Shown: positions 7,277 through 32,024 of the stretch, piece after piece
How positions within the stretch are numbered: the stretch's first letter is position 1
How the letters are laid out: each line of letters starts with the position of its first letter
From: a virus
Lineage: Duplodnaviria > Heunggongvirae > Uroviricota > Caudoviricetes
IMG/VR virus record: IMGVR_UViG_3300024507_000282
Location: 1-40,860 of that record
Strand: one strand, 5' to 3'
Length of the DNA: 40,860 nt
Made by a program: the position numbers and the translations under genes
The notes under the pieces: generated by a model
Told to the model about the DNA's origin: nothing
Databases searched by the model: none
Seen by the model: only the letters and a program-made list of their open reading frames with translations

Positions 7277-7522
7277 ATGAAAGTTTACGAAATATTAGAA
7301 AACATTGAAACTGATTTGGATGAAAAAGCATCCAGAAAACTCTGCGTCTCTACTCGTTCAGATGCTGAGTTGGGTGCAAGTAATCTAGCAAGTTGTAAGT
7401 CACAAGGCTTACGTGCCCGCGATGGACAGAAAAGCCACTTAGTAGGCAAGAAGCGTATTACAGTTGGCGGTAAGAAAATCAAAGGTAAAAAATACGGCGG
7501 CCCATTGCCGGACTATAGTTGA
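7277..7522 (+). CDS. Small basic protein, candidate internal head protein
   Basis: ATG 7277 lies 8 nt after TAAATA; MKVYEILE..E N-terminus; Lys/Gly-rich C-terminus. Confidence 0.65.
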   Translation: MKVYEILENIETDLDEKASRKLCVSTRSDAELGASNLASCKSQGLRARDGQKSHLVGKKRITVGGKKIKGKKYGGPLPDYS

Positions 7523-7539
7523 AATGCGAGCACTCAGAT

Positions 7540-8088
7540 ATGATTGGCCAACTACTTGTGGCTCCACCAGCTCAGAAGAATGAGTTCTGGGAAGAGTCAG
7601 TTATATTCTTATATGAGCAAACTGCTCAAAGTGTTGTTGGCCTCATCGTAAACAAACCCAGCGAAAGATCCCTAGCAGACCTAGCAGAACATCACGAATT
7701 AGATTACACAGGCGACGAACAAATTTATGTCGGTGGCCCAGTAAATCCTAGTGCGTTGGTTATGCTACACACAGATGATTGGGCTTGTACTAATACAATG
7801 CACATTGGCGGACCTTGGAGAATTAGTTCAGACAGAACGATGCTTAGTCGTATCTGCAAGGGCGACGCTCCCCGCAAATGGAGATTATTCTTAGGTATGA
7901 GTGTTTGGTCACCCGTGCAGTTAGAAGGAGAGATTATGGGCAATCCTCCGTGGGACAAGAAAACGTCCTGGGTCACAGCACCAGCAACAGAATCAATCTT
8001 GTTTGCCAAATCACCCGAAAGAGCTTGGAAGAAAGGCATCGATTTAGCCGCCCAATCGATGGTCTCCAATTACTTTACAATAGAATAA
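7540..8088 (+). CDS. yqgE: YqgE/AlgH family protein (DUF179)
   Basis: LLVA.P...F..SVI...GLIVNKP, YVGGPV, LFLG.S.WS..QLE.E...W; start 7540 (ATG) or 7519 (TTG). Confidence 0.85.
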   Translation: MIGQLLVAPPAQKNEFWEESVIFLYEQTAQSVVGLIVNKPSERSLADLAEHHELDYTGDEQIYVGGPVNPSALVMLHTDDWACTNTMHIGGPWRISSDRTMLSRICKGDAPRKWRLFLGMSVWSPVQLEGEIMGNPPWDKKTSWVTAPATESILFAKSPERAWKKGIDLAAQSMVSNYFTIE

Positions 8089-8093
8089 ATCGG

Positions 8094-18430: not shown

Positions 18431-19059
18431 ATATTATAGTCGTAGGCGGTGGAACCTTTGGTCGATTTGGTAATGACTTTGTAAGACAAGCAAAGGCAGA
18501 TGGACATGTTGTCCGTGTGCTTTCTCACAGAACTAACGATGACACAGATGCTACGCTAACTTTCTTAACAGCAGAAGATGCAGTAACTAAGTTCAATAGC
18601 ATTACACAAGACTTAGATACAATTGATATCTTGTTGTACAACTCAACATATAAAGGCTATCCAGACGATCCTAGTACATTTACTAGCAAAGGTGTAATAA
18701 AAGAAAAGTTATATGTACATGGATTTTATGTACAGGCAATCATACCACACGCACTATCTATCGAAGCATTAAAGAAAATGACAACACAGTCTAAAATTGT
18801 GTTTATGACCACAGATGTAATCTACGATAGAGAACGCACACTTGGACTACACAAGTTGGGCTACTACGGTGGCAAGGCATATCAACATCAATTGATGTTA
18901 GCACTAGCAGAACACAACGACAAAGATGTAACTGTGAGTTCAGTAAGTCCCGTGTTTGACTATGAGGATAGAAAAAACTATCAAAGGCAGTTTAATACAG
19001 TCTATGAACATATCTTTGGCACTACACAGAATGGAAAAATATATGACTGCTGGGAATAA
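18427..19059 (+). CDS. Short-chain dehydrogenase/reductase-like Rossmann protein
   Basis: IIVVGGG...FG, DILLYNS, YYGGK (YxxxK). Confidence 0.7.
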   Translation: MNIIVVGGGTFGRFGNDFVRQAKADGHVVRVLSHRTNDDTDATLTFLTAEDAVTKFNSITQDLDTIDILLYNSTYKGYPDDPSTFTSKGVIKEKLYVHGFYVQAIIPHALSIEALKKMTTQSKIVFMTTDVIYDRERTLGLHKLGYYGGKAYQHQLMLALAEHNDKDVTVSSVSPVFDYEDRKNYQRQFNTVYEHIFGTTQNGKIYDCWE

Positions 19060-19711
19060 CTTACACGACAACTATGAGTTCTTCCAAGGCGGCTTGGATG
19101 GCGCAAACTCCTATACTCTTTATGTTACATATAAATGTAATTGGTTCTGTAACTACTGCTCAGAAGATACACACAATCGTCCAGATGTAACCATAGAAGA
19201 CTTACAGCGTAAGGTACAGGCCATTCCTCCTAACAGCGATGTAGCCATTACAGGAGGAGAACCGGGTACACTTAATAAAGAAGTAATGCTATGGTTGCTA
19301 ACAGAATTAAAAAGCAAAGGTTGTTTCATTAATGTAAACACTAACGGAACATTCTTTAAGAAACATAAAAACGTTTGCCATATCCCAGATAGTTTTCTAT
19401 ATCACTGTAGCGAACACTTAGATGATGAAGAGATATGGATTCCAGAACATGTTGATCGTTCTAAGATAGACTTTCAACTTGTGATAACAGATGATACTGC
19501 GGACAGATTAGAATACTATATCAACAAGTATCCAGACATAAAGTTTTTGATATTTGGTGCAGACAATGTAATTGGAAAAGGATTAAGTAGAGCAAATGGA
19601 TTTAAGGTTTATCAAAAGTTTAAAGATAAGATTGATCCAAACAGTTACATACATTTGATTACAACCTGTAGAGAAGTAAATGATATACGGAAACTAAAAG
19701 CATTGAGATGA
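19043..19711 (+). CDS. Minimal radical SAM enzyme (#5; trio A-1)
   Basis: CNWFCNYC.EDTHNRP, TGGEPG, TNG, LYHCSE; ATG 19043 preferred over 18956. Confidence 0.88.
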   Translation: MTAGNNLHDNYEFFQGGLDGANSYTLYVTYKCNWFCNYCSEDTHNRPDVTIEDLQRKVQAIPPNSDVAITGGEPGTLNKEVMLWLLTELKSKGCFINVNTNGTFFKKHKNVCHIPDSFLYHCSEHLDDEEIWIPEHVDRSKIDFQLVITDDTADRLEYYINKYPDIKFLIFGADNVIGKGLSRANGFKVYQKFKDKIDPNSYIHLITTCREVNDIRKLKALR

Positions 19712-20286
19712 AAGAGATAGAACTTCCTTTAACTTATAAGTGTAATTGGCACTGTGACTATTGTGTAGCAGACACACACAATCGTCCAGAGTTACCTTAC
19801 GAGGAAGTTCTGCGTAGAGTAGAGGCTATTGAGCCAGGTACAGAAGTTACCTTTGGTGGAGGTGAGCCAGGACTACTAAAGCGTGATCAACTAGAACATA
19901 TTATTAAAATACTCAAAGACAAAGGTTGTGTGATTGATTTACTAACTAATGGACTGTTCTTTAAACGTCATATGCCTTTGGTACATGAGTTTGGTAAGAT
20001 ACACTATCACTGTGTTGAGTACTTACCAGACGACATAGAGTTTCCAGACTTACAATTAAATCATGTATCCTATGGATTGGTAGTTACAAACACAAACTTC
20101 CTAGACGGAAGCATACATGAAATGATTAGACGTTACCCGCACATTAAGTTTTTATTGTTGCCCGATGTGCGTAGTCAAAAGAAGATTAACTTAAACTTAA
20201 TGATGGACTTCTTTAATGAACACGGCGATAAGGTACATCCAGGATCATTGCAGGAATTCATCACAGTTGTGGCAAGGTGGCACTAA
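19708..20286 (+). CDS. Minimal radical SAM enzyme (#6; trio A-2)
   Basis: CNWHCDYC.ADTHNRP, GGGEPG, TNG, HYHCVE; 192 aa. Confidence 0.88.
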   Translation: MKEIELPLTYKCNWHCDYCVADTHNRPELPYEEVLRRVEAIEPGTEVTFGGGEPGLLKRDQLEHIIKILKDKGCVIDLLTNGLFFKRHMPLVHEFGKIHYHCVEYLPDDIEFPDLQLNHVSYGLVVTNTNFLDGSIHEMIRRYPHIKFLLLPDVRSQKKINLNLMMDFFNEHGDKVHPGSLQEFITVVARWH

Positions 20287-20900
20287 TGGCAATTCACGCA
20301 CAAGAACGAGAAATTGAATTAGTCGTTACATGGGTATGTAACTGGCACTGCGACTATTGCTGTGTTGATACACACAATCGTCCTAAACTTACTATGGATG
20401 AAGTAAAGGCCAAGTTAGACAAAGTTATTCCAGGATACAACGTAACACTCAGTGGCGGCGAAGTTGGCAGTATGAAACGTGCAGACATTGAATATATCCT
20501 AGACGAACTAGAAAAGAAAGGTTGCCGCCCTAGCATTAATACTAATGGATTGTTTATCAAACGCTATCGTGATCTATTGCCTCGCTTTGATACTATCCTG
20601 TATCACTGTAGCGAAAACTTAGACTTAGACGAAGAGATCATTATAGATCCAGAATTAAATTTACAGTATCTATTAATAGTTACTGACACTAACTTTGACA
20701 AGTTAGAAGCATTTATTAACAAGTATTCAGACATAGAGTTTCATTTAGTTGCGGCTACTATGCCCGAAGGTATCAATGGTGTAACATTATCAAACAAACT
20801 CAAACACGCTATGCTGACTAGATTCCACAAGCGTATGACAGCAGAATCTAAAGTGCGAGTATTTAAGGAGAAGGACTTTGACTCAATCATCTATCTATAA
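20286..20900 (+). CDS. Minimal radical SAM enzyme (#7; trio A-3)
   Basis: CNWHCDYC.VDTHNRP, SGGEVG, TNG, LYHCSE; TAATG overlap at 20286. Confidence 0.88.
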   Translation: MAIHAQEREIELVVTWVCNWHCDYCCVDTHNRPKLTMDEVKAKLDKVIPGYNVTLSGGEVGSMKRADIEYILDELEKKGCRPSINTNGLFIKRYRDLLPRFDTILYHCSENLDLDEEIIIDPELNLQYLLIVTDTNFDKLEAFINKYSDIEFHLVAATMPEGINGVTLSNKLKHAMLTRFHKRMTAESKVRVFKEKDFDSIIYL

Positions 20901-21786
20901 AGTCCAACCTAACGCAGACATTGAACGTATTGAGTTAGAGTTAACTTCTGCTTGTAATCTCAAATGTCCGTTGTGTGTTCGAGCAATAACCAACGTGCCT
21001 GATGAAAACAATTATAGAAGTCTAGAAGAAATAATTGCACAGTTAGACAGTTATCCAAACTTAAAGTTTATTACTATTGCTGGCCCAATCTCAGAGCCAA
21101 CAACTTATCCTAAACTATTGGAGTTGATTGCTTATATTAACAAACGTGATATTGAGATATCTCTGTACATCAACGGAGATACTAGAAATGATCTGTATTA
21201 TAAAAAACTAGGCACATTGTTTAGAAACAAGACAGGACATGTATACTTTACCATCTGCGGTAGCACACAAGAGTTACACGGAACATACAGAGTTAATTCA
21301 AAGTTAGATAGAGTGTTATCTAGATTAGAAATAGTAGATAAGTTCAGCGGTGGGAAGGGTGTATTAACTTGGATTGTGTTTAACTATAACGAGCAGGACT
21401 TTATAGAAAACTATCCAAAGTTCAGTGAACGATACAATACAGAATATTTCCATACTTTGCCAATTACAGAGCATCACCAGTTAAAGAGTAAAATACACTT
21501 ACCAGATCGTTTAAAGGCATTGTACGAACGAGAAATAGATAGAAAGGATTTTAACAATATAGTATGCCCAGCCAACGCTAGTAACTATATACAAATAAGA
21601 CATGACGGCAAGATAGATCCTTGTTCGTTATATAGGCAGTTTGGGGAAGAACATTGTTGGGAATGTAGTAAGAAGAATCTTACAACACTAAGAACAAATA
21701 AGATATTCCAATGTGCAGAACCAGAAACAGAAACATCATCAAGGAGTGTGTTGTTATATTATGAACGTCACTATGAAAAAGAGTGA
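20878..21786 (+). CDS. Radical SAM/twitch enzyme (#8; trio B-1)
   Basis: CNLKCPLC, ISEPT, TICGSTQELH..YR; C...I..DG.I.PC...CWEC; TAAGGAG SD before TTG. Confidence 0.88.
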   Translation: MTQSSIYKVQPNADIERIELELTSACNLKCPLCVRAITNVPDENNYRSLEEIIAQLDSYPNLKFITIAGPISEPTTYPKLLELIAYINKRDIEISLYINGDTRNDLYYKKLGTLFRNKTGHVYFTICGSTQELHGTYRVNSKLDRVLSRLEIVDKFSGGKGVLTWIVFNYNEQDFIENYPKFSERYNTEYFHTLPITEHHQLKSKIHLPDRLKALYEREIDRKDFNNIVCPANASNYIQIRHDGKIDPCSLYRQFGEEHCWECSKKNLTTLRTNKIFQCAEPETETSSRSVLLYYERHYEKE

Positions 21787-22687
21787 AGTAGAAGAGATGG
21801 AGATGGACTTGACAGGAGTCTGTAATCTCTCATGCCCACTGTGTACTCGTAACTATCAACATGCGAATCACTTGGTTGAAAAGAATGTACGAGACATAGA
21901 CACTATTATTAAACAGTTAGATCAGTACACAGGACTTAAACGTTTCTTTGTTGCAGGTGTAGTCAGTGAGCCGACTATGTACAAAGACTTCATTAAGTTT
22001 ATTGAATACCTAAACAGTCGTGATATCTATTACGAAATCTTTACCAACGGCAATACTAGAGATACAGCATGGTGGGAACAGTTGGGTAGCATTGTACCTG
22101 AGAAATGTATGTGTGCATTTACTGTCTGCGGAAGCACACAGGAAATACATGCCAAGTATCGTGTGGGCAGTGACCTACAACAGATCCTAGACAATGCCGC
22201 GGCGTTCCGTAAGAACAGACGTAAGAATGATTGGATACAACATATCCGTTTTGAGTACAATGCAGAGGATAGAGAAAGCCCAGAGATGAAAGCAATCTTT
22301 GATCAATTCAGTAATGTAATGAAAGTTGAAACAGAAGGTGTGCGTAGAGTAAACGTCTACAACAAAGAAGTAGAACTAGGCATTCGTCCTGTTAAGACCC
22401 GGGAGCAAACTATTAAGTTGTTGTTTAAGAATCGTCCTGAGCCCAACGACGGTAAACAATACAACATACAATGCCGTAGTCTACAACAAAAGAAAATATA
22501 CATTAACCAATGGGGACAGGTCAGTGCCTGTTATACTCATGCTGAGAATGAGCAAGACTACTTTCCAGCAGACAAAGAAGACATGGACTACAGTGATATC
22601 CTATCCTTTAAGTTTCCAGATTGTTTCCTATGTGAGAAGCGTACACGTACCTTTATTGATAAAATGGGATTGGACTTTGTATGTTAA
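21761..22687 (+). CDS. Radical SAM/twitch enzyme (#9; trio B-2)
   Basis: CNLSCPLC, VSEPT, TVCGSTQEIH..YR; C...I...G.V.AC...CFLC; start 21761 or 21773. Confidence 0.88.
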   Translation: MNVTMKKSEVEEMEMDLTGVCNLSCPLCTRNYQHANHLVEKNVRDIDTIIKQLDQYTGLKRFFVAGVVSEPTMYKDFIKFIEYLNSRDIYYEIFTNGNTRDTAWWEQLGSIVPEKCMCAFTVCGSTQEIHAKYRVGSDLQQILDNAAAFRKNRRKNDWIQHIRFEYNAEDRESPEMKAIFDQFSNVMKVETEGVRRVNVYNKEVELGIRPVKTREQTIKLLFKNRPEPNDGKQYNIQCRSLQQKKIYINQWGQVSACYTHAENEQDYFPADKEDMDYSDILSFKFPDCFLCEKRTRTFIDKMGLDFVC

Positions 22688-23592
22688 AGATGCCTAAGGT
22701 TATTGACCTAGAGTTAGAACTTACAACATACTGTAATGCTCAGTGTGGACTATGCTATAGAAACTATACAGCATTCAAAGAACACTACCCAGAGAATAAA
22801 GTTCGTCCACTACAGGAAGTCATAGATCAATTAGAAACGTTTCCAGACTTAGAATGGATACGTCTTGTTGGTACTATATCGGAACCAACTATCTACAAAG
22901 ACTTCTTTCCTTTAGTCAAATACATGAAGGCCCGTGGACTAAAGATTGAAATCTGTACTAACGGAGCAACACACAAGCCCGACTGGTGGAAAGAGTTATC
23001 TACTCTAATGAACGCAGATGACAAAGTTTATTTCAGCATCTGTGGTAGCACACAAGAACTACACGAAATATATCGTACAGGAACTAGTCTAGCAAAAATA
23101 CTAGAGAATGCTCGTGCGTTCCGTAGTGATAATAAGAATGACTATGCTCAGTGTATTCGTTTTTATTATAACAGCGATGACTTTGATGGGCTAGAGTTCA
23201 AACAAATGGTCAGCGAGTTTAGTCATGTCTATTGGACAGAAACATTCCTGCAGAAAGAAGAATCCAATTACGTAGACAAAACGAACCTACTTAAATTAAG
23301 ACCCAATCCTAAAAAAATAGATGACTATCAGCAGATGGATAAGTTTGCCCGTGCCAAATATGCTAGTCCAGTTAAAGGCAAAGCCTACTGCATGAGTTGG
23401 GAAAACAAAAGCCAGCAAGTGGACATTGACGGCAAAGTATATCCCTGCTATTTGTTTTTGGAAGCCAGCAAAGGCAAAGAATGGGACGGCGACTACGAGA
23501 AAATTTTGAACATGCAGTACGAAGTCTGTAAATACTGCGACCGTGCAGTTATAGAACTCTGCGATAAAAAAGACTTACGTTACATTATATGA
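22681..23592 (+). CDS. Radical SAM/twitch enzyme (#10; trio B-3)
   Basis: CNAQCGLC, ISEPT, SICGSTQELH..YR; C...V..DG.V.PC...CKYC. Confidence 0.88.
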   Translation: MLKMPKVIDLELELTTYCNAQCGLCYRNYTAFKEHYPENKVRPLQEVIDQLETFPDLEWIRLVGTISEPTIYKDFFPLVKYMKARGLKIEICTNGATHKPDWWKELSTLMNADDKVYFSICGSTQELHEIYRTGTSLAKILENARAFRSDNKNDYAQCIRFYYNSDDFDGLEFKQMVSEFSHVYWTETFLQKEESNYVDKTNLLKLRPNPKKIDDYQQMDKFARAKYASPVKGKAYCMSWENKSQQVDIDGKVYPCYLFLEASKGKEWDGDYEKILNMQYEVCKYCDRAVIELCDKKDLRYII

Positions 23593-25115
23593 ATCATTGT
23601 TTACTTTTGGCTGTGAATGTTGTGCTAATTGATAGAGTTGGCGGCATACACAGAATGGCTAATCACCTTCGTTCCTTGAATTGGGACTGCGAAGTTGTGG
23701 ACTTTATAATGTATTGGACTCCGGAAGAACTGTTAGAACTTGTAAAATCTAGAGTTACATCAAATACAAAGTTTATAGGATTTTCTTATCTTTGGAACAG
23801 AGCGCAGTCTATACATAAATTTCGTCTAGCCTTTGAATGGATAAAAAAGAATTATCCAGACATAGTTTTTATATCAGGCGGGCAATCGCAACTTATTGAT
23901 TATTCATATTCGGACTATCACATTTATGGCTATGGCGAGTATGCTATAGAAGAGTTACTTAACTATAAATTTTCAAATGGCCAAAGTCCAAAGTTTGAAA
24001 ATATTTCTAGCAGAACTAAGATTATAAATGCCAATAGAGACTATCCTGCATATCCTATGAAACATGCTATGATCAAATATGAGGATAGAGACTTTTTAAT
24101 GCCTAACGAATGGGGCAGAATAGAATTCAGTCGAGGTTGTAAGTTTGCCTGTAAGTTCTGTAATTTTCCTGTGATCGGTGCCAAAGAAGATTATACTAGA
24201 GATATTAAAAACGTAAGAGAACAATTCATGGATGCCTATGATCGTTTTGGTATAGAGAACTATCATATTAGCGACGAAACATTCAATGACAGGCCCTATA
24301 AGATTTCTAGAATAGCAGACTTAGTTGAAACGTTACCGTGGAAGCCATACTTTGCTGGATTCATCCGTGCTGATTTATTAATAAATCGTAAGCACGATAG
24401 AGAAGATTTATTAAGAATGGGGTTCCTTGGACATTTCTATGGCATAGAAACATTTAACCCTAAATCAGCAAGTTACATAGGAAAAAATGGTAACACTACA
24501 CGAATGAAAGAAGGACTAGTAGAAGTTAAAGAATACTTTCAAAAGCACGTAGGTAACAAGTACAGGGCAACTATCAGTTTGATAGCAGGCCTGCCACACG
24601 AAACATTAGACAGTTTAGAAACTACTTACCAATGGGTTAAGAATCATTGGAGAGATCAGTTAGCAGTGGCTTGTCCTTTAGAAATAATGGACTGGGGAGA
24701 CTCTAGAGAAAATAGAATTTCCGATGATTTTCAAAAATACGGATATGAACAGATTGAAATAGATCTTAATCCTAATCCTAATTTTATATTTGAAAAAGAT
24801 AAAACAGTAGACAGAACAAAAGTAATGTTACCTGGAACAGGTAAAAATCCTCCCATAGCCTGGAAGAATCCTAACATGGATATTATGCAAGCATGGGATT
24901 GGTGTAACAAATTAGATAAAATTTGGTTAGTGGGAGAAAAGAATCTTGCTAGGACTGAAGGATACTTATTGTCAAGAATATTGTGTCACGAAAACGGCGA
25001 TGTGCTTACTCTTGAAGAAAAATTAAAATTAGTCGAAGAGACTGCTATTAAACACACAGAAAATTTTAAAGTGTTTGTCAACAACTATAAAACGAAGAAA
25101 CTAAATTGGAAATAA
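23589..25115 (+). CDS. B12-binding-domain radical SAM enzyme (#11; class B-like)
   Basis: N-terminal Rossmann-like domain (LRS..W...VVD, FIGFS, GG, GYGE), then EFSRGCKFACKFC, SDETFN, GIETF, LIAGLPHET. Confidence 0.85.
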   Translation: MNHCLLLAVNVVLIDRVGGIHRMANHLRSLNWDCEVVDFIMYWTPEELLELVKSRVTSNTKFIGFSYLWNRAQSIHKFRLAFEWIKKNYPDIVFISGGQSQLIDYSYSDYHIYGYGEYAIEELLNYKFSNGQSPKFENISSRTKIINANRDYPAYPMKHAMIKYEDRDFLMPNEWGRIEFSRGCKFACKFCNFPVIGAKEDYTRDIKNVREQFMDAYDRFGIENYHISDETFNDRPYKISRIADLVETLPWKPYFAGFIRADLLINRKHDREDLLRMGFLGHFYGIETFNPKSASYIGKNGNTTRMKEGLVEVKEYFQKHVGNKYRATISLIAGLPHETLDSLETTYQWVKNHWRDQLAVACPLEIMDWGDSRENRISDDFQKYGYEQIEIDLNPNPNFIFEKDKTVDRTKVMLPGTGKNPPIAWKNPNMDIMQAWDWCNKLDKIWLVGEKNLARTEGYLLSRILCHENGDVLTLEEKLKLVEETAIKHTENFKVFVNNYKTKKLNWK

Positions 25116-26074
25116 AAAACAAACTAAACATAGACGATTTGCAAAATTTTTTAGACAGCACAGTTTTAATAACTGGCGCTGGCGGAACTATTGGCAGTGA
25201 ATTGGTAAATCAGATACAGGCAAAAACTATTATAGCAGTTGATATCAGCGAATACGCTATCTATAAACTACAGCGCGGCATTGGTGCTAAGAACGTGCAT
25301 TGTATAGTCGGAGATGTCAGCGACAAGAAGTTAGTCGACATGATCTTTGACAAATATCAAATAGATTATATTTTTAATGCCGCTGCCTATAAACATGTAG
25401 ATACACTAGAAGATGAAAATAACTTTTATTCTGTAGTTAAGAACAATATTCTATCTGTTATTAATTTATGTAATCATTCGGACGAAGTGAAATGTATGAT
25501 ACACATATCCAGCGACAAGGCAGTAAACCCTACTAACAATATGGGCTACACTAAACTTTGGTGCGAACGTATTGTACAGCAATATGCTAGAACATCTGAC
25601 ACAGAAATGAAAATTGTTAGATTTGGAAATGTTTTTAGATCATCGGGATCCTTTGTAGAAACATTAGAGTGGCAGATAGCAAACAATTTGCCAATAACTA
25701 TTACAGATCCTGAAATGAAGCGTTACTTTATTTCAGTACAGGATGCAGTATCGTTAATCATTAATATTGTTCATTTAGAATTTGCCAAAGCAACATACAT
25801 CTTAGATATGGGCGACGAGCAGTCTATAATGGACCTAGTACCTAAAGATTACCCGCAGGTCATAATTGGATGTAGACCTGGAGAGAAACTACGAGAAGAA
25901 TTATTCTACGACTACGAACAACTGCAAGATACTAGCAACACTTTGATTAAGAAAATTGAATGGAAACCAGTGCCTATGATAACTAACATAGTCACTTTGC
26001 TAGACGAGTTAAAAAAGGATACAGTATGTCTAAAGACATTAAACGAGATTATCACAACAACAACGATTTTGTAG
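25106..26074 (+). CDS. NDP-sugar 4,6-dehydratase, PglF/CapD (Polysacc_synt_2) catalytic domain
   Basis: TGAGGTIGSEL, FNAAAYKHV, ISSDKAVNPTN.MG.TK, VRFGNV..S.GS, RPGEKL.EEL; no membrane domain. Confidence 0.9.
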   Translation: MEIKNKLNIDDLQNFLDSTVLITGAGGTIGSELVNQIQAKTIIAVDISEYAIYKLQRGIGAKNVHCIVGDVSDKKLVDMIFDKYQIDYIFNAAAYKHVDTLEDENNFYSVVKNNILSVINLCNHSDEVKCMIHISSDKAVNPTNNMGYTKLWCERIVQQYARTSDTEMKIVRFGNVFRSSGSFVETLEWQIANNLPITITDPEMKRYFISVQDAVSLIINIVHLEFAKATYILDMGDEQSIMDLVPKDYPQVIIGCRPGEKLREELFYDYEQLQDTSNTLIKKIEWKPVPMITNIVTLLDELKKDTVCLKTLNEIITTTTIL

Positions 26075-26661
26075 AACTGTTTGAGCAACGCCTATGTGAA
26101 TACACAGGTGCTCCTTATGCTGTGGCAGTAGATCGTTGCACCAATGCTATACTGTTAGCAATGGAATACTATGGTAAGAAGAAACAGAAAGTCAGTATAC
26201 CAACACAGACATACCTAAGTGTTCCAATGACACTGATCAACTACGGATACAATGTATGGTTAGAGTTCGATGATTGGATGGGCAACTATCGTATTGGACA
26301 CACTAATGTCTATGACTATGCTGTAGGTTTTGAAAAGAATATGTATGTGCCTGGGCAAGTCCAGTGTGTTAGTTTTCAACAGAAGAAGCGTCTAGCAATA
26401 GGTAAGGGCGGAGCAATTCTATTAGACAACAAAGAGATGTATGAGAAACTAAAACGTATGCGCCACGACGGTAGAGACAGTGCTATTCCTACAGCACAGG
26501 ACACAGGTATCATTATGGGTTATCATATGTACATGAGCCCAGACGAAGCCGCACGTGGTGTATTGTTGCTTAATCAACTCAGCGAACACTACACTAATGG
26601 CTCACACAAAGACTATCCAGACATTTCAAAGTTTGCGTGTTTAAAGGACTATGCAGTATGA
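26026..26661 (+). CDS. DegT/DnrJ/EryC1/StrS sugar aminotransferase (short form)
   Basis: FE...EYTGA.YAVAV..CT.A..LA, SFQQKK...IGKGG.I, G..M.M....AA.G; 211 aa. Confidence 0.85.
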   Translation: MSKDIKRDYHNNNDFVELFEQRLCEYTGAPYAVAVDRCTNAILLAMEYYGKKKQKVSIPTQTYLSVPMTLINYGYNVWLEFDDWMGNYRIGHTNVYDYAVGFEKNMYVPGQVQCVSFQQKKRLAIGKGGAILLDNKEMYEKLKRMRHDGRDSAIPTAQDTGIIMGYHMYMSPDEAARGVLLLNQLSEHYTNGSHKDYPDISKFACLKDYAV

Positions 26662-27485
26662 AGTATGCCCTAATCACAGCCATCGAAGGAGATGCTAACA
26701 ACCTTAACGAGCAGAAAGGTATTGTTGGTACTAGACGTTTGTTTGAAAGCGAAGCAGTACTGTGCTTTGAGAACTGGCGTAAGAATGGCGGATGGTTAAA
26801 GGACTGTGCTATCTATGCTTTTTGTCCCACACACAACATTGTAACTGACAAAACAAAAGAACGATTTAAAGAATTAAATGTAACTTACATAGAAGAGTAT
26901 CAGCCTATCACAGAAACATTTATCAGTGGTTTCTTAAATGTTCCTTTAGTAGGTATGTTGCTAGAGCAGAGGCTTGCAGAAGATGTACTAATCAAAATAG
27001 ACTTAGACATGAATTTGATTAAGCCCTTACCGGAAGAGTTAGTTAACAGTGAAACATTGATCTGCGGACAGTACGATGACTACTGTACAGCACAACAGCG
27101 TACAGTTAAAGAAGGATGGAGTAATCCATTTGACACAGGCTTTACTATCAGCAGACGTGACAGTGGATTTTATAAATTCTTCTTTGATGTCCTAACTGAC
27201 ACAATGACTAATCATGATCCTGAATGGGAGAAAGTTCGTGCAGTCAGCGGAGACTACTACTTAGAAGAATACGTTATGGACAAGATCTATAACAACAAAC
27301 TGTGGCCAGTACAGCCAATACAAAAGTATCAGATAGGCGAGTGGTATACACCAGTAAAGGAGTTTACAGACGATGAACTTAGAACAGTATACTTCTGGCA
27401 CGAACACCTTATACATGATCCTGTGTATGACAAAGTCAGAGAGAAAGTAGAATATTTTAATAGAATGAGGAAGTTACGTGATTAA
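26658..27485 (+). CDS. GT-A fold glycosyltransferase-like protein (GT8-like)
   Basis: ATGA overlap at 26658; KIDLDM (DxD), PFDTGF, LEE, late His. Confidence 0.6.
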   Translation: MKYALITAIEGDANNLNEQKGIVGTRRLFESEAVLCFENWRKNGGWLKDCAIYAFCPTHNIVTDKTKERFKELNVTYIEEYQPITETFISGFLNVPLVGMLLEQRLAEDVLIKIDLDMNLIKPLPEELVNSETLICGQYDDYCTAQQRTVKEGWSNPFDTGFTISRRDSGFYKFFFDVLTDTMTNHDPEWEKVRAVSGDYYLEEYVMDKIYNNKLWPVQPIQKYQIGEWYTPVKEFTDDELRTVYFWHEHLIHDPVYDKVREKVEYFNRMRKLRD

Positions 27486-28551
27486 CTCACACACAAGTTT
27501 TGGCCGTTTAAAAGAAGTAGTAGTTGGCAGAGAATTAAAACTAGCCAAGCGTATCAGCGACATTACATTCAAACAGTTTTATAGAGAAGCCTTAGACGAA
27601 CGCATCTACGAAGCACCGTTTGAAAACTATACAGTCAGCATGGAATTGATTGATCAACGCAATGAACAGTTAGATGGGTTGGCAAAGACATTAGAAAGCC
27701 TAGGAGTAACAGTACACAGACCCGATGTGCTAGATAAGATTGTTCCGTTTACTACCCCTAGTTTTCGTAGTGAACTAAGTTCGGCAAGTAATGTACGTGA
27801 TCTAACATTAGTGTATGGCAACAAGTTAATTGAAACTCCTACTTTTGTACGCAATCGTTATTATGAAAATACTCTGTTACATGATGTGTATAGTCGTGCA
27901 TGGGATAGAGGACGTGGCGGGCAATGGATTAAGGCTCCGCACACTGAGTTAACAGAAGACACTATTGACCTAGGGCATTGGGGAGATAGTCGTGACTATG
28001 CAAACATTCCCAGTAACTATGTAATGGCAGTAGATGGCGCACAGTTCCTACGCATAGGCAAAGACTGTGTTGTTAACATCAACAGTTATAATCAATACTT
28101 GGGCTACGAGTGGATCAAGAGCTTTTATCCAGACACAGACTTCCATGTCTTACATGTAGCAGATAATCATATCGATGGTTGCCTAATCTGTCTACGGCCA
28201 GGAGTGTTCCTAGTTAATCCCTTGTACCCAAACATTAAAGATCTGTTGCCTGCTAAGTTCCGCAACTGGACTTACTTGTATCCTAAAGACCTAACAGCAA
28301 ACATTGATGTACGAGGTATGACAGATATTGATATTAGACTAGCCAGCAGTCGTGGTATGGACGTTAATGTATTAAGTGTTGACGAAAATACTGTGTTGGT
28401 TACCGATCGTGCTGTTGGTGTTGCAGACATATTAGATAAGAATGGTTTTACAGTCATTCCTATTAAACTAGAGCACGGTGAAATCTTTGCAGGCGGCATT
28501 CATTGCTCAACATTAGACTTGGTGCGTGAGGATGAATACATATCTTATTAA
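27478..28551 (+). CDS. Amidinotransferase (glycine/inosamine-phosphate amidinotransferase family)
   Basis: NS...LKEVVVG, RD...V.GN..IE.P, DGAQ..R.G.D, HIDG, GGIHCST.D..R (Asp/His/Cys catalytic residues). Confidence 0.9.
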   Translation: MINSHTSFGRLKEVVVGRELKLAKRISDITFKQFYREALDERIYEAPFENYTVSMELIDQRNEQLDGLAKTLESLGVTVHRPDVLDKIVPFTTPSFRSELSSASNVRDLTLVYGNKLIETPTFVRNRYYENTLLHDVYSRAWDRGRGGQWIKAPHTELTEDTIDLGHWGDSRDYANIPSNYVMAVDGAQFLRIGKDCVVNINSYNQYLGYEWIKSFYPDTDFHVLHVADNHIDGCLICLRPGVFLVNPLYPNIKDLLPAKFRNWTYLYPKDLTANIDVRGMTDIDIRLASSRGMDVNVLSVDENTVLVTDRAVGVADILDKNGFTVIPIKLEHGEIFAGGIHCSTLDLVREDEYISY

Positions 28552-29173
28552 CAGTAAGGTGCAATTTATAAAGGAAGCCCGTGATGACTTTAAACGCATT
28601 TACGGACTAGACCACACGCCTTTTACTCGTAAGATATATTTTTACTTCTTTGAACACAATAACAAAAAGTACGTTCACAGGCGAGCGTTACAATTCATTT
28701 ACTCTAATGCAGATACTTACACTACTGAAGTAGATCCTTACTACTGCTATTTGACAAAACAAAAACAGCCCGTAGACATATTTGCATTTTTAGAATCTTA
28801 TCAGGGAAATCTATTACCCAAATTACTAGAAAGCAATGATAGTTTTTTGGTCTATGAATACTGGGAAGGAGATCCTGTAGAATCAGTTACAGAGCAGGAA
28901 TTTCATTATTTGAAACTTCAACACAAACAGTTAGAACTCACTCCATTCTACAACAGCATGACTTATAATTTGGCTAGAAACGGCAATCAAATTAAATTAA
29001 TAGATTTTAAGCACTTTGAACTCAAGGATAACAAGCCGTTCTTTCTCTATCTTTACAATGAAGATAATAGGGTAAATACACTATACATCGAACAAGGAAC
29101 AGATATTGATACTATAGTCAATCATTTGGGTATTGACTATCCTGTATTAGATGCTAATATTATAGAATATTGA
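28532..29173 (+). CDS. Degenerate protein-kinase/APH-like fold protein
   Basis: LPKLL...LVYEYWEG hinge; N....G..IKLIDF; catalytic HxD Asp absent. Confidence 0.45.
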   Translation: MNTYLINSKVQFIKEARDDFKRIYGLDHTPFTRKIYFYFFEHNNKKYVHRRALQFIYSNADTYTTEVDPYYCYLTKQKQPVDIFAFLESYQGNLLPKLLESNDSFLVYEYWEGDPVESVTEQEFHYLKLQHKQLELTPFYNSMTYNLARNGNQIKLIDFKHFELKDNKPFFLYLYNEDNRVNTLYIEQGTDIDTIVNHLGIDYPVLDANIIEY

Positions 29174-29182
29174 GGAATAAAA

Positions 29183-29980
29183 ATGACAGAACCTACTAAC
29201 GAACAAGTCTCTATCCCTGCGTCTTCTGTGGAAAATTCCAAAGAAAACCTTTTTAGACTTTGTGAGTATAATCCAGACGGACAGTCTGGTTGCCGCAGAA
29301 CTAGTACAATACTTGCTTTAGAAGCAGAATACGACACGTTTGTCGATCCAGAAATGCAATGGGGTTATTGGGATCAATACTGTCTACACGAAGGCGCCGC
29401 ATACTACTACAAAGGTTGGTTAGAAACTAATTTAAACGAAGACATTACCGAATTAGATTTCTTAAAAGATAATCCAAATAGTCGTGTAGATGATAAGAAA
29501 AAATATATTTCTGTTGTAGGTTCTCAAATTTTAGACGCATTTGACTTTGAGCAACTTTCTAATTTGTTTAAAAATAGACCAGCAGGTTTTCCAGAGCTTA
29601 CTTTAGAAACTCCTCAGTTCTTTAAATGTATGGACGTAGGTACAGATGTTATCACTATAGACGAGCTCGATAAAACTTTACTGACAAAAATACAAAACAC
29701 ATTCACAGATAACATTAATCCACTTTTAACAGATCTTACAGATAAATTACATTTAGTTGACGGTAAAGTTTACTGTGTCGATTGTCTGTCATTTTTACAA
29801 AACCCAAATGTTAAATTAGGGGTATTAATGATTGCAAAGAATTCTGAAAAGTATATAAATGGAAATGGATACTTCTTTCCGTTTTCAACATTAACAGCAG
29901 AACAAACTGATTTCGTTAAAACTATTCCTCATGTTTATTTTGACGATTTTGCAGGGGAAGTGATTATAATTAATCTATGA
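29183..29980 (+). CDS. Hypothetical protein, possibly a remote kinase-like fold
   Basis: GAGGA SD; LTDLTDKLHLVDGKVYCVD loosely resembles the kinase catalytic-loop/DFG region. Confidence 0.6.
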   Translation: MTEPTNEQVSIPASSVENSKENLFRLCEYNPDGQSGCRRTSTILALEAEYDTFVDPEMQWGYWDQYCLHEGAAYYYKGWLETNLNEDITELDFLKDNPNSRVDDKKKYISVVGSQILDAFDFEQLSNLFKNRPAGFPELTLETPQFFKCMDVGTDVITIDELDKTLLTKIQNTFTDNINPLLTDLTDKLHLVDGKVYCVDCLSFLQNPNVKLGVLMIAKNSEKYINGNGYFFPFSTLTAEQTDFVKTIPHVYFDDFAGEVIIINL

Positions 29981-30849
29981 AGTATCTATTATTAGGTGGC
30001 GCTGGTTTTATTGGCGCCCACTTAGCAAAGCGTCTTATCAAAGACGGACACGATGTTACTATTGTTGATTCCTTAATAACATCCAGTGCTCCAAACTTTC
30101 CAGTTAAGTTCATTCATGCAGACATACGCAACGCTGTACTTGATGAATTGCTGTTAGAAACAGATGTTGTATATTTTCTAGCAGGATCTGTAGGTGTTGC
30201 TAACATAGTCAACAATCCAACAACTACATTAAGAAACAATATTGAACTAATGAGTCGTTTGATTCCTTTGTTTGAAAGATATCAAAACAAAGTAATCTTT
30301 AGTTCTACATCAGAAGTCTACGGCGACGGACCATTCAGCGAAGATAACACTCTACACATTGGTCCTCCTACAGATTTGCGTTGGGGATATGCCGCGGCAA
30401 AGTTAATGACAGAGTTTATGATATCTGCCAGTACATTCCCTTACACTATAGTTAGATTCTTTAATGTAACAGGCCCTGGGCAGTTAGGCGAGCATGGCAT
30501 GGTGCTGCCAAGGTTTGTTGATGCGGCCAAGGTTGGTAGGGATCTTACAGTCTATAGCGATGGCGGGCAGGTACGTAGTTTCTGTCACATCAATGATGCT
30601 GTTGAGTTGTTGTTAAAGATCGAAAACATCAACGGAGAAATCTTTAATGTAGGCAGTGACAGCGTAGTGACTATCAAAGAATTAGCAGAGCGAGTGATTA
30701 AACTATCGAACTCTACATCTAAGATAAACTATGTGCCAACACCGCACAGTGACATTGTCAGTAGAATCCCAGATCTAACTAAAGTAAAATATCTTACAGG
30801 TTTTGTAGCACAGTATGACTTAGATGATATTATCAAGGACATGCTGTGA
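29977..30849 (+). CDS. NAD-dependent epimerase/dehydratase (extended SDR)
   Basis: GGAGFIG, SSTSEVYG, YAAAK, RFFNV.GP, RSFCHI.D.V, FNVG. Confidence 0.9.
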   Translation: MKYLLLGGAGFIGAHLAKRLIKDGHDVTIVDSLITSSAPNFPVKFIHADIRNAVLDELLLETDVVYFLAGSVGVANIVNNPTTTLRNNIELMSRLIPLFERYQNKVIFSSTSEVYGDGPFSEDNTLHIGPPTDLRWGYAAAKLMTEFMISASTFPYTIVRFFNVTGPGQLGEHGMVLPRFVDAAKVGRDLTVYSDGGQVRSFCHINDAVELLLKIENINGEIFNVGSDSVVTIKELAERVIKLSNSTSKINYVPTPHSDIVSRIPDLTKVKYLTGFVAQYDLDDIIKDML

Positions 30850-31505
30850 ACATACTGTTTGTCCTAGCACACCCAGACGATGAAGCATATGGTCCATACG
30901 GTACTATGGCTCGGATGGTGGCTGAAGGACATAAGGTTACACTATTCTGCTTGTGTAACGGAGAGCGTCCGAACTTTGAACAAGTTGCCGCTGACAGAGT
31001 GTTTGCACTCAAAGCCAACTGCGAACAACTAGGAATAGAATGGAAGATTTGGAATAATAAAGATCTTAGTTTAGAACTTAATGATACTGCACATCTATTG
31101 ACACAGTTGTTTATTCAACATAAACCTGAAGTAGTTTACACACATAACATATCAGATATAAATCACGACCACAGAGTATTGGCAGATGCAGTTATGATAG
31201 CCAGTCGTCCCAAACCAGATAGTACTGTTAATCAACTTTATTTCTTTGAAGTGCCGTCTAGCACAGATTGGACATTTAATCAACTAACACCTGCGTTTCA
31301 ACCTACAACCTATGTAGACATCAGTGATTATATTGACTCTAAGAAAGAGGCCCTAAGTAGATACTCAACAGAAACTTACGAGTTTCCAGATGCTAGGAGT
31401 ATCGAGGCAATGACCACGCTGGCAAAGTATCGAGGCTATCAGGTTGGCCTTCCTTATGCCGAAGCATTTCGATTGGTATTCGACCGGATCCAGCGCAGTC
31501 AGTAA
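30846..31505 (+). CDS. PIG-L/LmbE family de-N-acetylase
   Basis: AHPDDE, H...D.NHDH, K..AL..Y..E, AEAF. Confidence 0.9.
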   Translation: MNILFVLAHPDDEAYGPYGTMARMVAEGHKVTLFCLCNGERPNFEQVAADRVFALKANCEQLGIEWKIWNNKDLSLELNDTAHLLTQLFIQHKPEVVYTHNISDINHDHRVLADAVMIASRPKPDSTVNQLYFFEVPSSTDWTFNQLTPAFQPTTYVDISDYIDSKKEALSRYSTETYEFPDARSIEAMTTLAKYRGYQVGLPYAEAFRLVFDRIQRSQ

Positions 31506-32001
31506 TCCCAAACTTTTTAACTAGTCCTTTGTACAGTCCGTGTGGATCTTCGTTGTAAGGGAAACAGAAGTGCGTTGGTTTAAATCCTAGATTTGTTTCA
31601 AACCATTGTATCATCTGTTCAGTGTCTTGATTAATATAAGCAACTTTTTCTGCTAGACTAGTAAAGTTATCTAACCTAGTGTGACTGTGGCTGTGTGCGC
31701 CAATGATAACATTAGGGTCTTGCATGAGCTCTTTGATCTGTTCCACAGTCATATAATCTTCAAAGTCGCCCAATCTTGCTTTTTTATGTGCTTGAACACA
31801 GTTTGGAAAATCTAGGCTTTGACAACCACTGCTAACAATGCCTGAACTGATGTAGTATATTCTCTGCGTAGTTAATTGTTTGAAACAATCGTTGTAGTAA
31901 TACTGGCTGTACAATCCGTCATCAAAGGTCAAGATGTAATCATTTAAGGGTAAATCAAACATCCATTCACGGACTTCGTGTATCATCAACAAAGGTTTCA
32001 T
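31393..32001 (-). CDS. Polysaccharide deacetylase (NodB/CE4)
   Basis: LTFDDG, IGAHSHSH, FCFPY; ATG 32001. Confidence 0.85.
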   Translation of the reverse strand: MKPLLMIHEVREWMFDLPLNDYILTFDDGLYSQYYYNDCFKQLTTQRIYYISSGIVSSGCQSLDFPNCVQAHKKARLGDFEDYMTVEQIKELMQDPNVIIGAHSHSHTRLDNFTSLAEKVAYINQDTEQMIQWFETNLGFKPTHFCFPYNEDPHGLYKGLVKKFGITDCAGSGRIPIEMLRHKEGQPDSLDTLPAWSLPRYS

Positions 32002-32006
32002 AAGCA

Positions 32007-32024
32007 ATATTTAACGATAAATAT
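32007..32024. promoter_or_regulatory. Back-to-back TAAATA motifs (bidirectional late-promoter palindrome)
   Basis: ATATTTA-acga-TAAATAT; same architecture as 10292..10310. Confidence 0.6.

Follow-up and report, generated by a model that had tools for sequence, protein, structure and literature searches.

Gene organization of the locus

The stretch of DNA analysed here (hereafter the window) comprises positions 1 to 40,860 of IMG/VR virus record IMGVR_UViG_3300024507_000282, assigned to Caudoviricetes, and carries four overlapping genes for a dehydratase, an aminotransferase, a glycosyltransferase and an amidinotransferase. These first 40.9 kb belong to a 104,860-bp record with an estimated completeness of only ~30%, and we therefore regard the source as a giant uncultured phage. 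The four open reading frames (ORFs) all lie on the + strand, at 25106-26074, 26026-26661, 26637-27485 and 27478-28551, with successive overlaps of 49, 25 and 8 nt; when the third gene is started at ATG 26658, the second overlap becomes 4 nt (ATGA). These coordinates agree with an earlier reading of the sequence (the original prediction), which had placed four overlapping genes in this order at 25106-28551 and proposed that they form a guanidino-deoxysugar pathway. With blastn, the nucleotide sequence of the four genes matched none of 50,697 phage records, and its relatives were detectable at the protein level only.

The four genes are embedded in a longer run of co-oriented + strand genes at 10362-31505, most of which overlap their neighbors. 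This ~21-kb run, probably a single transcription unit, encodes a mini UDP-sugar dehydrogenase, 11 radical S-adenosylmethionine (SAM) enzymes, a fiber-like protein with an S74 domain, the four focal enzymes, two ORFs without assignment, a short-chain dehydrogenase/reductase (SDR) and a PIG-L family deacetylase, and a convergent NodB deacetylase gene lies at its 3′ end on the - strand. The strongest sigma-70-like site of the region (TTGACT-16-TATAAT, 10331-10358) is located just 5′ of the first operon gene; in the promoter and terminator scan, total counts were at chance level and promoter-like sites were no commoner than in shuffled sequence.

The four focal enzymes

The first gene (25106-26074, +) encodes a 322-aa soluble SDR of the PglF type, an NDP-N-acetylhexosamine (NDP-HexNAc) 4,6-dehydratase family, with a match to PF02719 (Polysacc_synt_2) at 1.3e-72. 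Among solved structures it is closest to the catalytic domain of Campylobacter jejuni PglF/WlaL (PDB 5bju, 6e-47). A Rossmann motif (TGAGGTIG) is found at residue 23. SSDKAV (residue 135) and NMGYTK (residue 145) align with ISTDKAV and IMGCTK of PglF, which contain T395 (Ser in the phage protein), D396, K397 and M405. The protein hence combines GxGGxxG with the Thr/Ser-Asp-Lys trio and a Met replacing the SDR Tyr, as in PglF/CapD enzymes. The N-terminal membrane domain of full-length PglF/WbpM is missing, and the Pfam domain begins at residue 20.

The second gene (26026-26661, +) encodes a half-size relative of the pyridoxal 5′-phosphate (PLP)-dependent sugar aminotransferases (211 aa; PF01041, DegT_DnrJ_EryC1, 2.2e-21), which we term mini-DegT. 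It departs from the two-domain DegT architecture of ~360-400 aa, lacking the C-terminal small domain and ~40 internal residues, so that profile positions ~100-160 and >~260 are missing. The PLP residues are nonetheless kept: T39, Y63, D97, S116 and K121 are invariant or nearly so, with D97 invariant and K121 conserved in ≥90% of 20 homologs. K121 (SFQQKK) aligns with the Schiff-base lysine of SFHPxK, and D97 corresponds to the pyridine-N aspartate. The structural model is of moderate quality (predicted local distance difference test score, pLDDT, 66) and aligns structurally with the large domain of sugar aminotransferases such as ArnB (Foldseek 1.7e-7), with matches spanning ~200 of ~365 target residues. 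We considered whether the gene is a truncated or frameshifted pseudogene; this is ruled out by a family of 920 homologs, the uniform length of the top 120 (all 199-225 aa) and the retained PLP residues. The subtype could not be narrowed further, as ArnB, perosamine synthase, WbpE, QdtB and PseC were tied in comparisons with both mini-DegT and a full-length bacterial counterpart described below.

The third gene encodes a retaining-type GT-A glycosyltransferase of the GT8/GT6/GT24-like group (275 aa, 26658-27485, +). The longest ORF opens at GTG 26637, and homologs of 272-283 aa start at residue 8 of this long ORF, which supports the ATG at 26658. Neither Pfam nor NCBIfam gave a match, and among PHROGs it matched 23758 (function unassigned) alone. 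The AlphaFold (AF2) model (pLDDT 94) has a GT-A fold, matching LgtC (Z 16.5; root-mean-square deviation 3.2 over 218 residues), BoGT6a (16.3), glycogenin (15.3) and UGGT (15.3), while Foldseek returned ABO GTA/GTB and UGGT at 1e-8 with probability 1.0. The DxD motif D115-L116-D117 (counted from Met8), which in this fold binds metal and nucleotide sugar, is invariant in 25 homologs. The protein is 35% identical to gp088 of Campylobacter phage CP220.

The fourth gene (27478-28551, +) encodes a 357-aa amidinotransferase of the AGAT/StrB1/HsvA/SxtG family, which belongs to the GME/pentein superfamily; the protein is 43% identical to CP220 gp086. Over residues 2-356 it matches StrB1 (6e-31), AGAT (7e-31), HsvA (5e-30) and SxtG (8e-29), although PF02274 stays below threshold (16.3 versus 22.8 bits). 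Searched against the solved members, a clade profile gave 2e-81 to 9e-71, best for HsvA (2e-81) and SxtG (1.1e-77), ahead of StrB1 and AGAT. Residues D108, D186, H231, D233, S291 and C343 correspond to AGAT D170, D254, H303, D305, S355 and C407, and the Cys-His-Asp triad and both guanidino-binding Asp residues are conserved in 89-98 of 98 aligned sequences.

Two sequence features set the enzyme apart from AGAT. In the 1997 AGAT structure, Arg322 reportedly binds the substrate carboxylate. This position is Arg in AGAT and StrB1 (NPSR), Tyr250 (NPLYP) in the window's enzyme and variable across the phage clade; the AGAT-specific insertion before Asp254 is also missing. Since HsvA and SxtG likewise lack an Arg322 equivalent, the residue marks the glycine and inosamine-phosphate subtypes rather than the family, and its absence from the phage clade fits a non-carboxylate amine acceptor. 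Together with the profile ranking, the loss argues against both the name "glycine amidinotransferase" and a phosphorylated cyclitol of the StrB1 type. An amino sugar or another amine that is uncharged or cationic would fit, and a polyamine equally well. HsvA and SxtG use arginine as donor and plain primary amines as acceptors (PMC6187163, PMC12371840). The possibility that loss of Arg322 means a donor other than arginine was accordingly rejected, as these two enzymes lack the residue and yet use arginine (PMC6187163, PMC12371840).

All four enzyme assignments of the original prediction hold, and its statement that catalytic motifs are present is right for each protein, with the caveat that the aminotransferase is half-size.

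Gene neighborhoods across viral lineages

Members of the amidinotransferase family occur at at least 579 IMG/VR loci. For the survey, ORFs were called and proteins clustered at 84 viral amidinotransferase loci, which fell into 30 lineages by 70% amidinotransferase identity; a corresponding survey of mini-DegT covered 80 loci and 37 lineages.

The commonest neighbor of the amidinotransferase is mini-DegT, present in 16 of the 30 lineages within 0.6-5.8 kb. It is followed by a small 2-oxoglutarate (2OG)-oxygenase-like protein (11), a UXS-like SDR (11), a radical SAM family (10), PIG-L (9), ~300-aa radical SAM paralogs (9) and the glycosyltransferase (8). A longer DegT (c225; 333 aa, PF01041 2.8e-45) is found in three further lineages and a class I/II aminotransferase-like gene in another four, which brings the lineages with some PLP aminotransferase-type gene in the vicinity to 23 of 30. 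Around mini-DegT itself, the UXS-like SDR is found in 18 of 37 lineages, the amidinotransferase in 16, PIG-L in 12 and the glycosyltransferase in 10. In minimal clusters such as L024 and L025, an SDR, PIG-L, mini-DegT, an RmlD-like SDR, the amidinotransferase and a GT-A enzyme occur together without the large radical SAM set. Two amidinotransferase paralogs stand no more than 10 kb apart in three loci (L025, L036 and L078).

The dehydratase shows a different distribution. A genuine PglF-type gene with the SS/TDKAV motif was found in three of the 37 mini-DegT lineages (L087, L088 and L096), all relatives of the window, and in one of the 30 amidinotransferase lineages. In all three sublineages it lies immediately 5′ of mini-DegT, with identity down to 47%. 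Two close relatives (L006 and L007) keep the amidinotransferase and are missing both the dehydratase and the B12-type radical SAM gene that precedes it, and two others (L008 and L010) have both together. The PglF-type dehydratase is a lineage-specific accessory and not a conserved pathway member. Being confined to the window's own lineage, it leaves a linear, dehydratase-first route as one variant at best, and its joint gain and loss with the B12 radical SAM gene suggests that it may feed that enzyme instead.

Bacterial counterparts

Two Halobacteriovorax genomes contain a syntenic cluster on megabase contigs, with an amidinotransferase 58-59% identical to that of the window. In order, the cluster consists of an S74 protein, three conserved unassigned ORFs, five radical SAM genes, the amidinotransferase, the glycosyltransferase, a relative of the phage 215-aa ORF that follows the amidinotransferase, and a full-length DegT (PF01041 4.8e-57). 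After DegT, the opposite strand encodes PIG-L, a radical SAM enzyme, NodB and an SDR with the UXS signature; further on lie a 526-aa protein with a pilin motif and an S74 domain, and then Ugd.

As the full-length DegT occupies the place of mini-DegT, the aminotransferase role seems to have been kept while the form of the protein changed, an argument for genuine aminotransferase function in the mini form. This substitution offers indirect, comparative support for the view that mini-DegT may transaminate an NDP-keto-sugar.

In Halobacteriovorax sp. CON-3, the 526-aa protein (L167, 14879-16459, +) has, besides its S74 domain, an N-terminal methylation motif like that of type IV pilins (PF07963). 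It is a possible cellular target of the same modification system. A contig of a Sulfurovum metagenome-assembled genome carries radical SAM, amidinotransferase, mini-DegT and glycosyltransferase genes consecutively.

Comparison with known systems

A literature search combining guanidino sugar and amidinotransferase found no relevant paper, nor any that names the product of this module. One of the closest described counterparts comes from Campylobacter phages CP220 and CPt10, in which five radical SAM genes and a putative glycine amidinotransferase form an exchangeable module; its authors assigned no function and suggested only some general benefit to metabolism (Timms et al. 2010; PMC2853527). 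Besides the 43% and 35% identities of gp086 and gp088 to the amidinotransferase and glycosyltransferase, the modules share paralogous radical SAM genes directly upstream and their exchangeable character. In contrast to the window, the Campylobacter modules have no PglF-type dehydratase, mini-DegT, UXS-like SDR or PIG-L/NodB.

Synechococcus phage S-SCSM2R encodes a protein (ORF305) 40% identical to mini-DegT, and a radical SAM gene and an amidinotransferase (ORF309) in a glycosyltransferase cluster, but it lacks a PglF-type dehydratase and has 2OG oxygenases. A second amidinotransferase of this phage, ORF266, distinct from ORF309, was detected in the proteome of CsCl-purified virions (PMC12801897).

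Among characterized pathways, the streptidine branch (StsC, kinase, StrB1; PDB 1bwd) offers the same logic of transamination of a ketone by a DegT-family enzyme followed by amidination from arginine, with the same catalytic triad. It differs in that the StrB1 acceptor is a phosphorylated aminocyclitol and the Arg322 equivalent is kept, where the phage enzyme has Tyr; moreover, the phage operon contains NDP-sugar SDRs and a GT-A enzyme, and no cyclitol-forming enzyme was found in it. The arginine:spermidine enzyme HsvA of phevamine synthesis (PDB 5wpi) and SxtG of saxitoxin synthesis (PDB 6u1r) are the best profile matches and share the missing Arg322 equivalent, whereas their substrates are polyamines or amino-ketones and their operons hold ATP-grasp or polyketide synthase-like enzymes instead of sugar enzymes.

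Two sugar pathways resemble the other part of the operon. The C. jejuni Pgl/bacillosamine system (dehydratase PglF, aminotransferase PglE) provides, with the PglF catalytic domain, the nearest solved relative of the first gene product, the unusual Thr/Ser-Asp-Lys and Met residues included, and the phage gene is followed by a DegT-family gene; unlike that system, the phage has neither a membrane anchor nor a PglD acetyltransferase, its aminotransferase is half-size, and an amidinotransferase stands in the acetyltransferase's place. The Arn pathway for 4-amino-4-deoxy-L-arabinose (Ugd, the ArnA decarboxylase, the aminotransferase ArnB and the NodB-type deformylase ArnD) is paralleled by phage genes of the Ugd family, the UXS/ArnA-signature SDR, the DegT family and the NodB family, and ArnB was the top fold match of the mini-DegT model, tied with others. 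However, no formyltransferase, ArnC or ArnT was found in the phage, and the SDR is nearer to UXS than to ArnA (1.4e-38 versus 4e-18).

A proposed route to a guanidino sugar

Our best explanation, to which we give slightly less than an even chance, is that the block makes an amino sugar, that one amine of this sugar becomes a guanidino group, and that the GT8-like enzyme incorporates it into a glycan on the fiber-like protein. From the enzyme families, their catalytic residues and their linkage, we infer the substrates, the order of steps and the target as follows. A host UDP-sugar would first be converted to a 4-keto sugar by the PglF-type dehydratase, the UXS/ArnA-type decarboxylase or both, taking UDP-HexNAc to UDP-4-keto-6-deoxy-HexNAc or, with UDP-glucuronate (UDP-GlcA) fed by the mini-dehydrogenase, giving UDP-4-keto-pentose. 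Mini-DegT would then convert the ketone to a primary amine. In the third step, the amidino group of L-arginine would be loaded onto Cys343 and passed to the sugar amine, yielding a guanidinium and ornithine; the amine could be the mini-DegT product or one freed by the PIG-L or NodB deacetylases. Finally, the GT8-like GT-A enzyme may transfer the glycan sugar to a protein or glycan acceptor, most likely the fiber-like protein of the operon.

The UXS/ArnA-type SDR together with the Ugd-family gene at the operon head suggests an Arn-like route, from UDP-GlcA through a 4-keto-pentose to a 4-amino-pentose. Going by the predicted enzymes, such a route is possible in this phage, and equally so as the PglF route; the enzymes of the Arn-like route are conserved far more widely.

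The central claim of the original prediction, that an amine is made and then amidinated on a sugar, is thus borne out in part. Linkage of the amidinotransferase to DegT, sugar enzymes and a GT-A enzyme across phage lineages and on a bacterial chromosome speaks for it, while the dehydratase drops out of the conserved set: it is limited to the window's lineage and missing even in L006 and L007, and the commoner SDR partner is of the UXS/ArnA type. The suggestion that PIG-L and NodB amines could serve as alternative acceptors is viable, as these deacetylases recur with the amidinotransferase. A role in host mimicry or defense evasion, also raised there, is pure speculation.

In its most far-reaching form, the explanation reads that an AGAT-family amidinotransferase guanidinylates an amino sugar, either as nucleotide sugar or within a glycan, and that this would give the first natural guanidino-sugar glycan, which giant phages, Campylobacter phages and the predatory Halobacteriovorax would display on a radical-SAM-matured fiber- or pilin-like protein. 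We advance this general form tentatively and would sooner expect it to fail than to hold.

Several observations weigh against a guanidino sugar. The nearest solved relatives by profile, HsvA and SxtG, act on non-sugar amines, and we know of no AGAT-family enzyme that uses the amine of a nucleotide sugar or glycan. The amidinotransferase occurs without any DegT in CP220, CPt10 and three surveyed loci (L017, L033 and L039); in marine phages its neighbors are 2OG oxygenases and radical SAM enzymes and not NDP-sugar SDRs, and the steadiest neighbors in the window's own subclade are radical SAM paralogs without assigned substrates. Mini-DegT lacks its C-terminal domain and has only a moderate model (pLDDT 66), so that its competence as a transaminase is a prediction. 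Finally, co-occurrence does not identify an acceptor, and the chemistry is a prediction.

Alternative explanations

The exact linear route of the original prediction is a sub-case of our best explanation: the PglF-type dehydratase and mini-DegT would turn UDP-GlcNAc into UDP-4-amino-4,6-dideoxy-HexNAc, which would be amidinated to a 4-guanidino sugar and transferred by the glycosyltransferase. The gene order with overlapping stops and starts, the retained PglF catalytic residues and the invariable position of the PglF-like gene, where present, immediately 5′ of mini-DegT all favor it. We nevertheless consider it unlikely. The dehydratase was seen in a single one of the 30 amidinotransferase lineages and in three of the 37 around mini-DegT, L006 and L007 lack it, and the remaining relatives must obtain their keto sugar elsewhere; the gene's shared gain and loss with the B12 radical SAM enzyme suggests that it may serve that enzyme.

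The main rival, which we likewise judge improbable, dispenses with the glycan. A polyamine (as for HsvA), an aminocyclitol or a radical-SAM-built amine would be amidinated, yielding a diffusible guanidino compound akin to aminoglycosides or phevamine. DegT, kinase-like, PIG-L, glycosyltransferase and radical SAM dehydrogenase proteins make up the enzyme set of aminoglycoside pathways. The profile ranking of HsvA and SxtG points the same way, as do the kinase-like lead for the 215-aa ORF and the radical SAM paralogs as closest constant neighbors; the mini-DegT, radical SAM and amidinotransferase genes of S-SCSM2R were labeled antibiotic synthesis by their authors, with no tests (PMC12801897). 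Yet Pfam detected in the operon no enzyme that forms inositol or inosose, no ATP-grasp ligase and no exporter, and its two NDP-sugar SDRs, Ugd-like enzyme and GT-A enzyme indicate nucleotide sugars. A fiber gene inside the operon and the adjoining virion genes also speak against this reading.

We regard as very unlikely that the acceptor is a peptide or protein side chain of the cysteine-rich fiber protein, with ornithine or lysine converted to arginine or homoarginine during radical SAM maturation resembling that of ribosomally synthesized and post-translationally modified peptides. PapB-like SPASM maturases and the S74 fiber protein do share the operon, and in Halobacteriovorax, too, they are inherited together with the amidinotransferase, but three loci (L016, L024 and L025) keep the sugar enzymes without maturases or an S74 protein. 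Every characterized member of the amidinotransferase family, to our knowledge, acts on small molecules.

Phage DNA, which the original prediction had allowed as an alternative to the virion, is a barely plausible target. Hypermodification with an amino or guanidino sugar or side chain would be in keeping with the DNA hypermodification for which giant and Campylobacter phages are known (PMC10516641 for 7-deazaguanines). Pfam reveals no nucleotide-metabolism or base-modifying gene in the operon, and the solved members of the GT8/GT6/GT24-like group act on glycans and proteins; together, the retaining GT-A fold and the fiber gene in the operon favor a protein or glycan target over DNA. The known DNA modifications of Campylobacter phages are, we presume, explained by other genes.

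An ordinary L-arginine:glycine amidinotransferase making guanidinoacetate, as the JGI and GenBank name "glycine amidinotransferase" for relatives would imply, is scarcely credible given Tyr250 at a position where Arg is not conserved in the clade, the missing AGAT insertion before Asp254 and a gene context of sugar tailoring.

If a guanidino sugar is indeed the product, glycans would gain a cationic building block of a new class, and the well-studied amidinotransferase family an acceptor of a new type. A function would also be at hand for the module that was described without explanation in Campylobacter phages in 2010 and whose family counts at least 579 loci in IMG/VR. A fiber glycan with a permanent charge could influence how the virion adsorbs to anionic cell surfaces. 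As minimal enzyme scaffolds, the half-size DegT and the mini-dehydrogenase are of interest as well.

Other genes of the operon and its flanks

The first operon gene (10362-11099, +) encodes a 245-aa protein of the UDP-glucose/GDP-mannose dehydrogenase family (mini-Ugd; PF00984 7.6e-17, PF03721 1.1e-10) that has GYGMVG as its Rossmann motif and the catalytic Cys in GGPCLPKD, but lacks the C-terminal UDP-binding domain. Similar forms of 244-264 aa are found in four related phage loci, a whole domain missing as in mini-DegT.

The S74 gene (13479-14297, +) encodes a fiber-like protein with an intramolecular chaperone domain (PF13884 1.5e-5). It is co-inherited with the amidinotransferase cluster in L014 and Halobacteriovorax, and is the most likely candidate for the glycan target.

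Three paralogous radical SAM enzymes of ~300 aa (20878-23592, +; PF04055) precede a 508-aa B12-binding-type radical SAM enzyme (23589-25115, +; PF04055 and NCBIfam B12-rSAM families). Paralogs of ~300 aa stand directly 5′ of the amidinotransferase in three phage loci (L009, L013 and L014), CP220, Halobacteriovorax and Sulfurovum. Searches of NCBIfam and PDB sequences gave only generic or weak matches for typing the radical SAM genes (BlsE 0.006; a W-cofactor maturase far under the cut-off), and a BtrN-type identity has no basis in these matches. The ~300-aa triplet follows a second tandem triplet of ~200-aa radical SAM genes (18956-20900, +), and copy number varies among related loci.

Immediately downstream of the amidinotransferase, a conserved 215-aa protein (28526-29173, +) has no Pfam or NCBIfam match. 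Its ESM Atlas feature neighbors include viral clusters with APH/RIO1 domains and the lipopolysaccharide heptose kinase WaaY (0.93-0.95), a lead suggesting that it is possibly a small kinase-like protein; its Halobacteriovorax relative also follows the amidinotransferase and glycosyltransferase. The next ORF (29183-29980, 265 aa) gave no lead in Pfam, NCBIfam, PHROG or ESM Atlas.

The 290-aa SDR at 29977-30849 (+) matches human UXS1 best among PDB entries (4lk3, 1.4e-38), followed by GalE (1e-26) and ArnA (4e-18). Its motifs SSTSEVYG, YAAAK and GGQVRSF correspond to the S/T-x-E, Y-x-x-x-K and Q-x-R of UXS/ArnA. By these motifs it is of the UXS/ArnA type and no generic epimerase, with a predicted UDP-glucuronate decarboxylase activity, and is a candidate alternative source of the 4-keto sugar.

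The SDR gene is followed by one for a 219-aa PIG-L family N-deacetylase (30846-31505, +; PF02585 2.1e-18) with AHPDDE and HDH motifs. The gene convergent with the operon (31393-32007, -) encodes a NodB/CE4 polysaccharide deacetylase-like protein (PF01522 1.4e-7) and is syntenic with the SDR and PIG-L genes in relatives. Further 3′ of the operon lie a virion structural protein gene (PHROG 1645) and then an ORF of >1926 aa (35081-40858, +), truncated by the window end and without a Pfam match.

Close to the focal genes, the L006 relative, whose amidinotransferase is 87% identical, carries a 2.7-kb insert (7279-10008) between the glycosyltransferase and amidinotransferase genes, comprising two fatty-acid-desaturase-like genes, an Asp/Asn beta-hydroxylase-like cupin and one ORF without assignment. 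At the operon head of the window, a 461-aa class I/II aminotransferase-fold protein (9082-10467, -; PF00155 5e-66) is encoded divergently, with an overlap of ~100 nt with the mini-Ugd ORF. Marine phage loci and Campylobacter phage WX1 have shorter class I/II aminotransferase-like genes beside the amidinotransferase.

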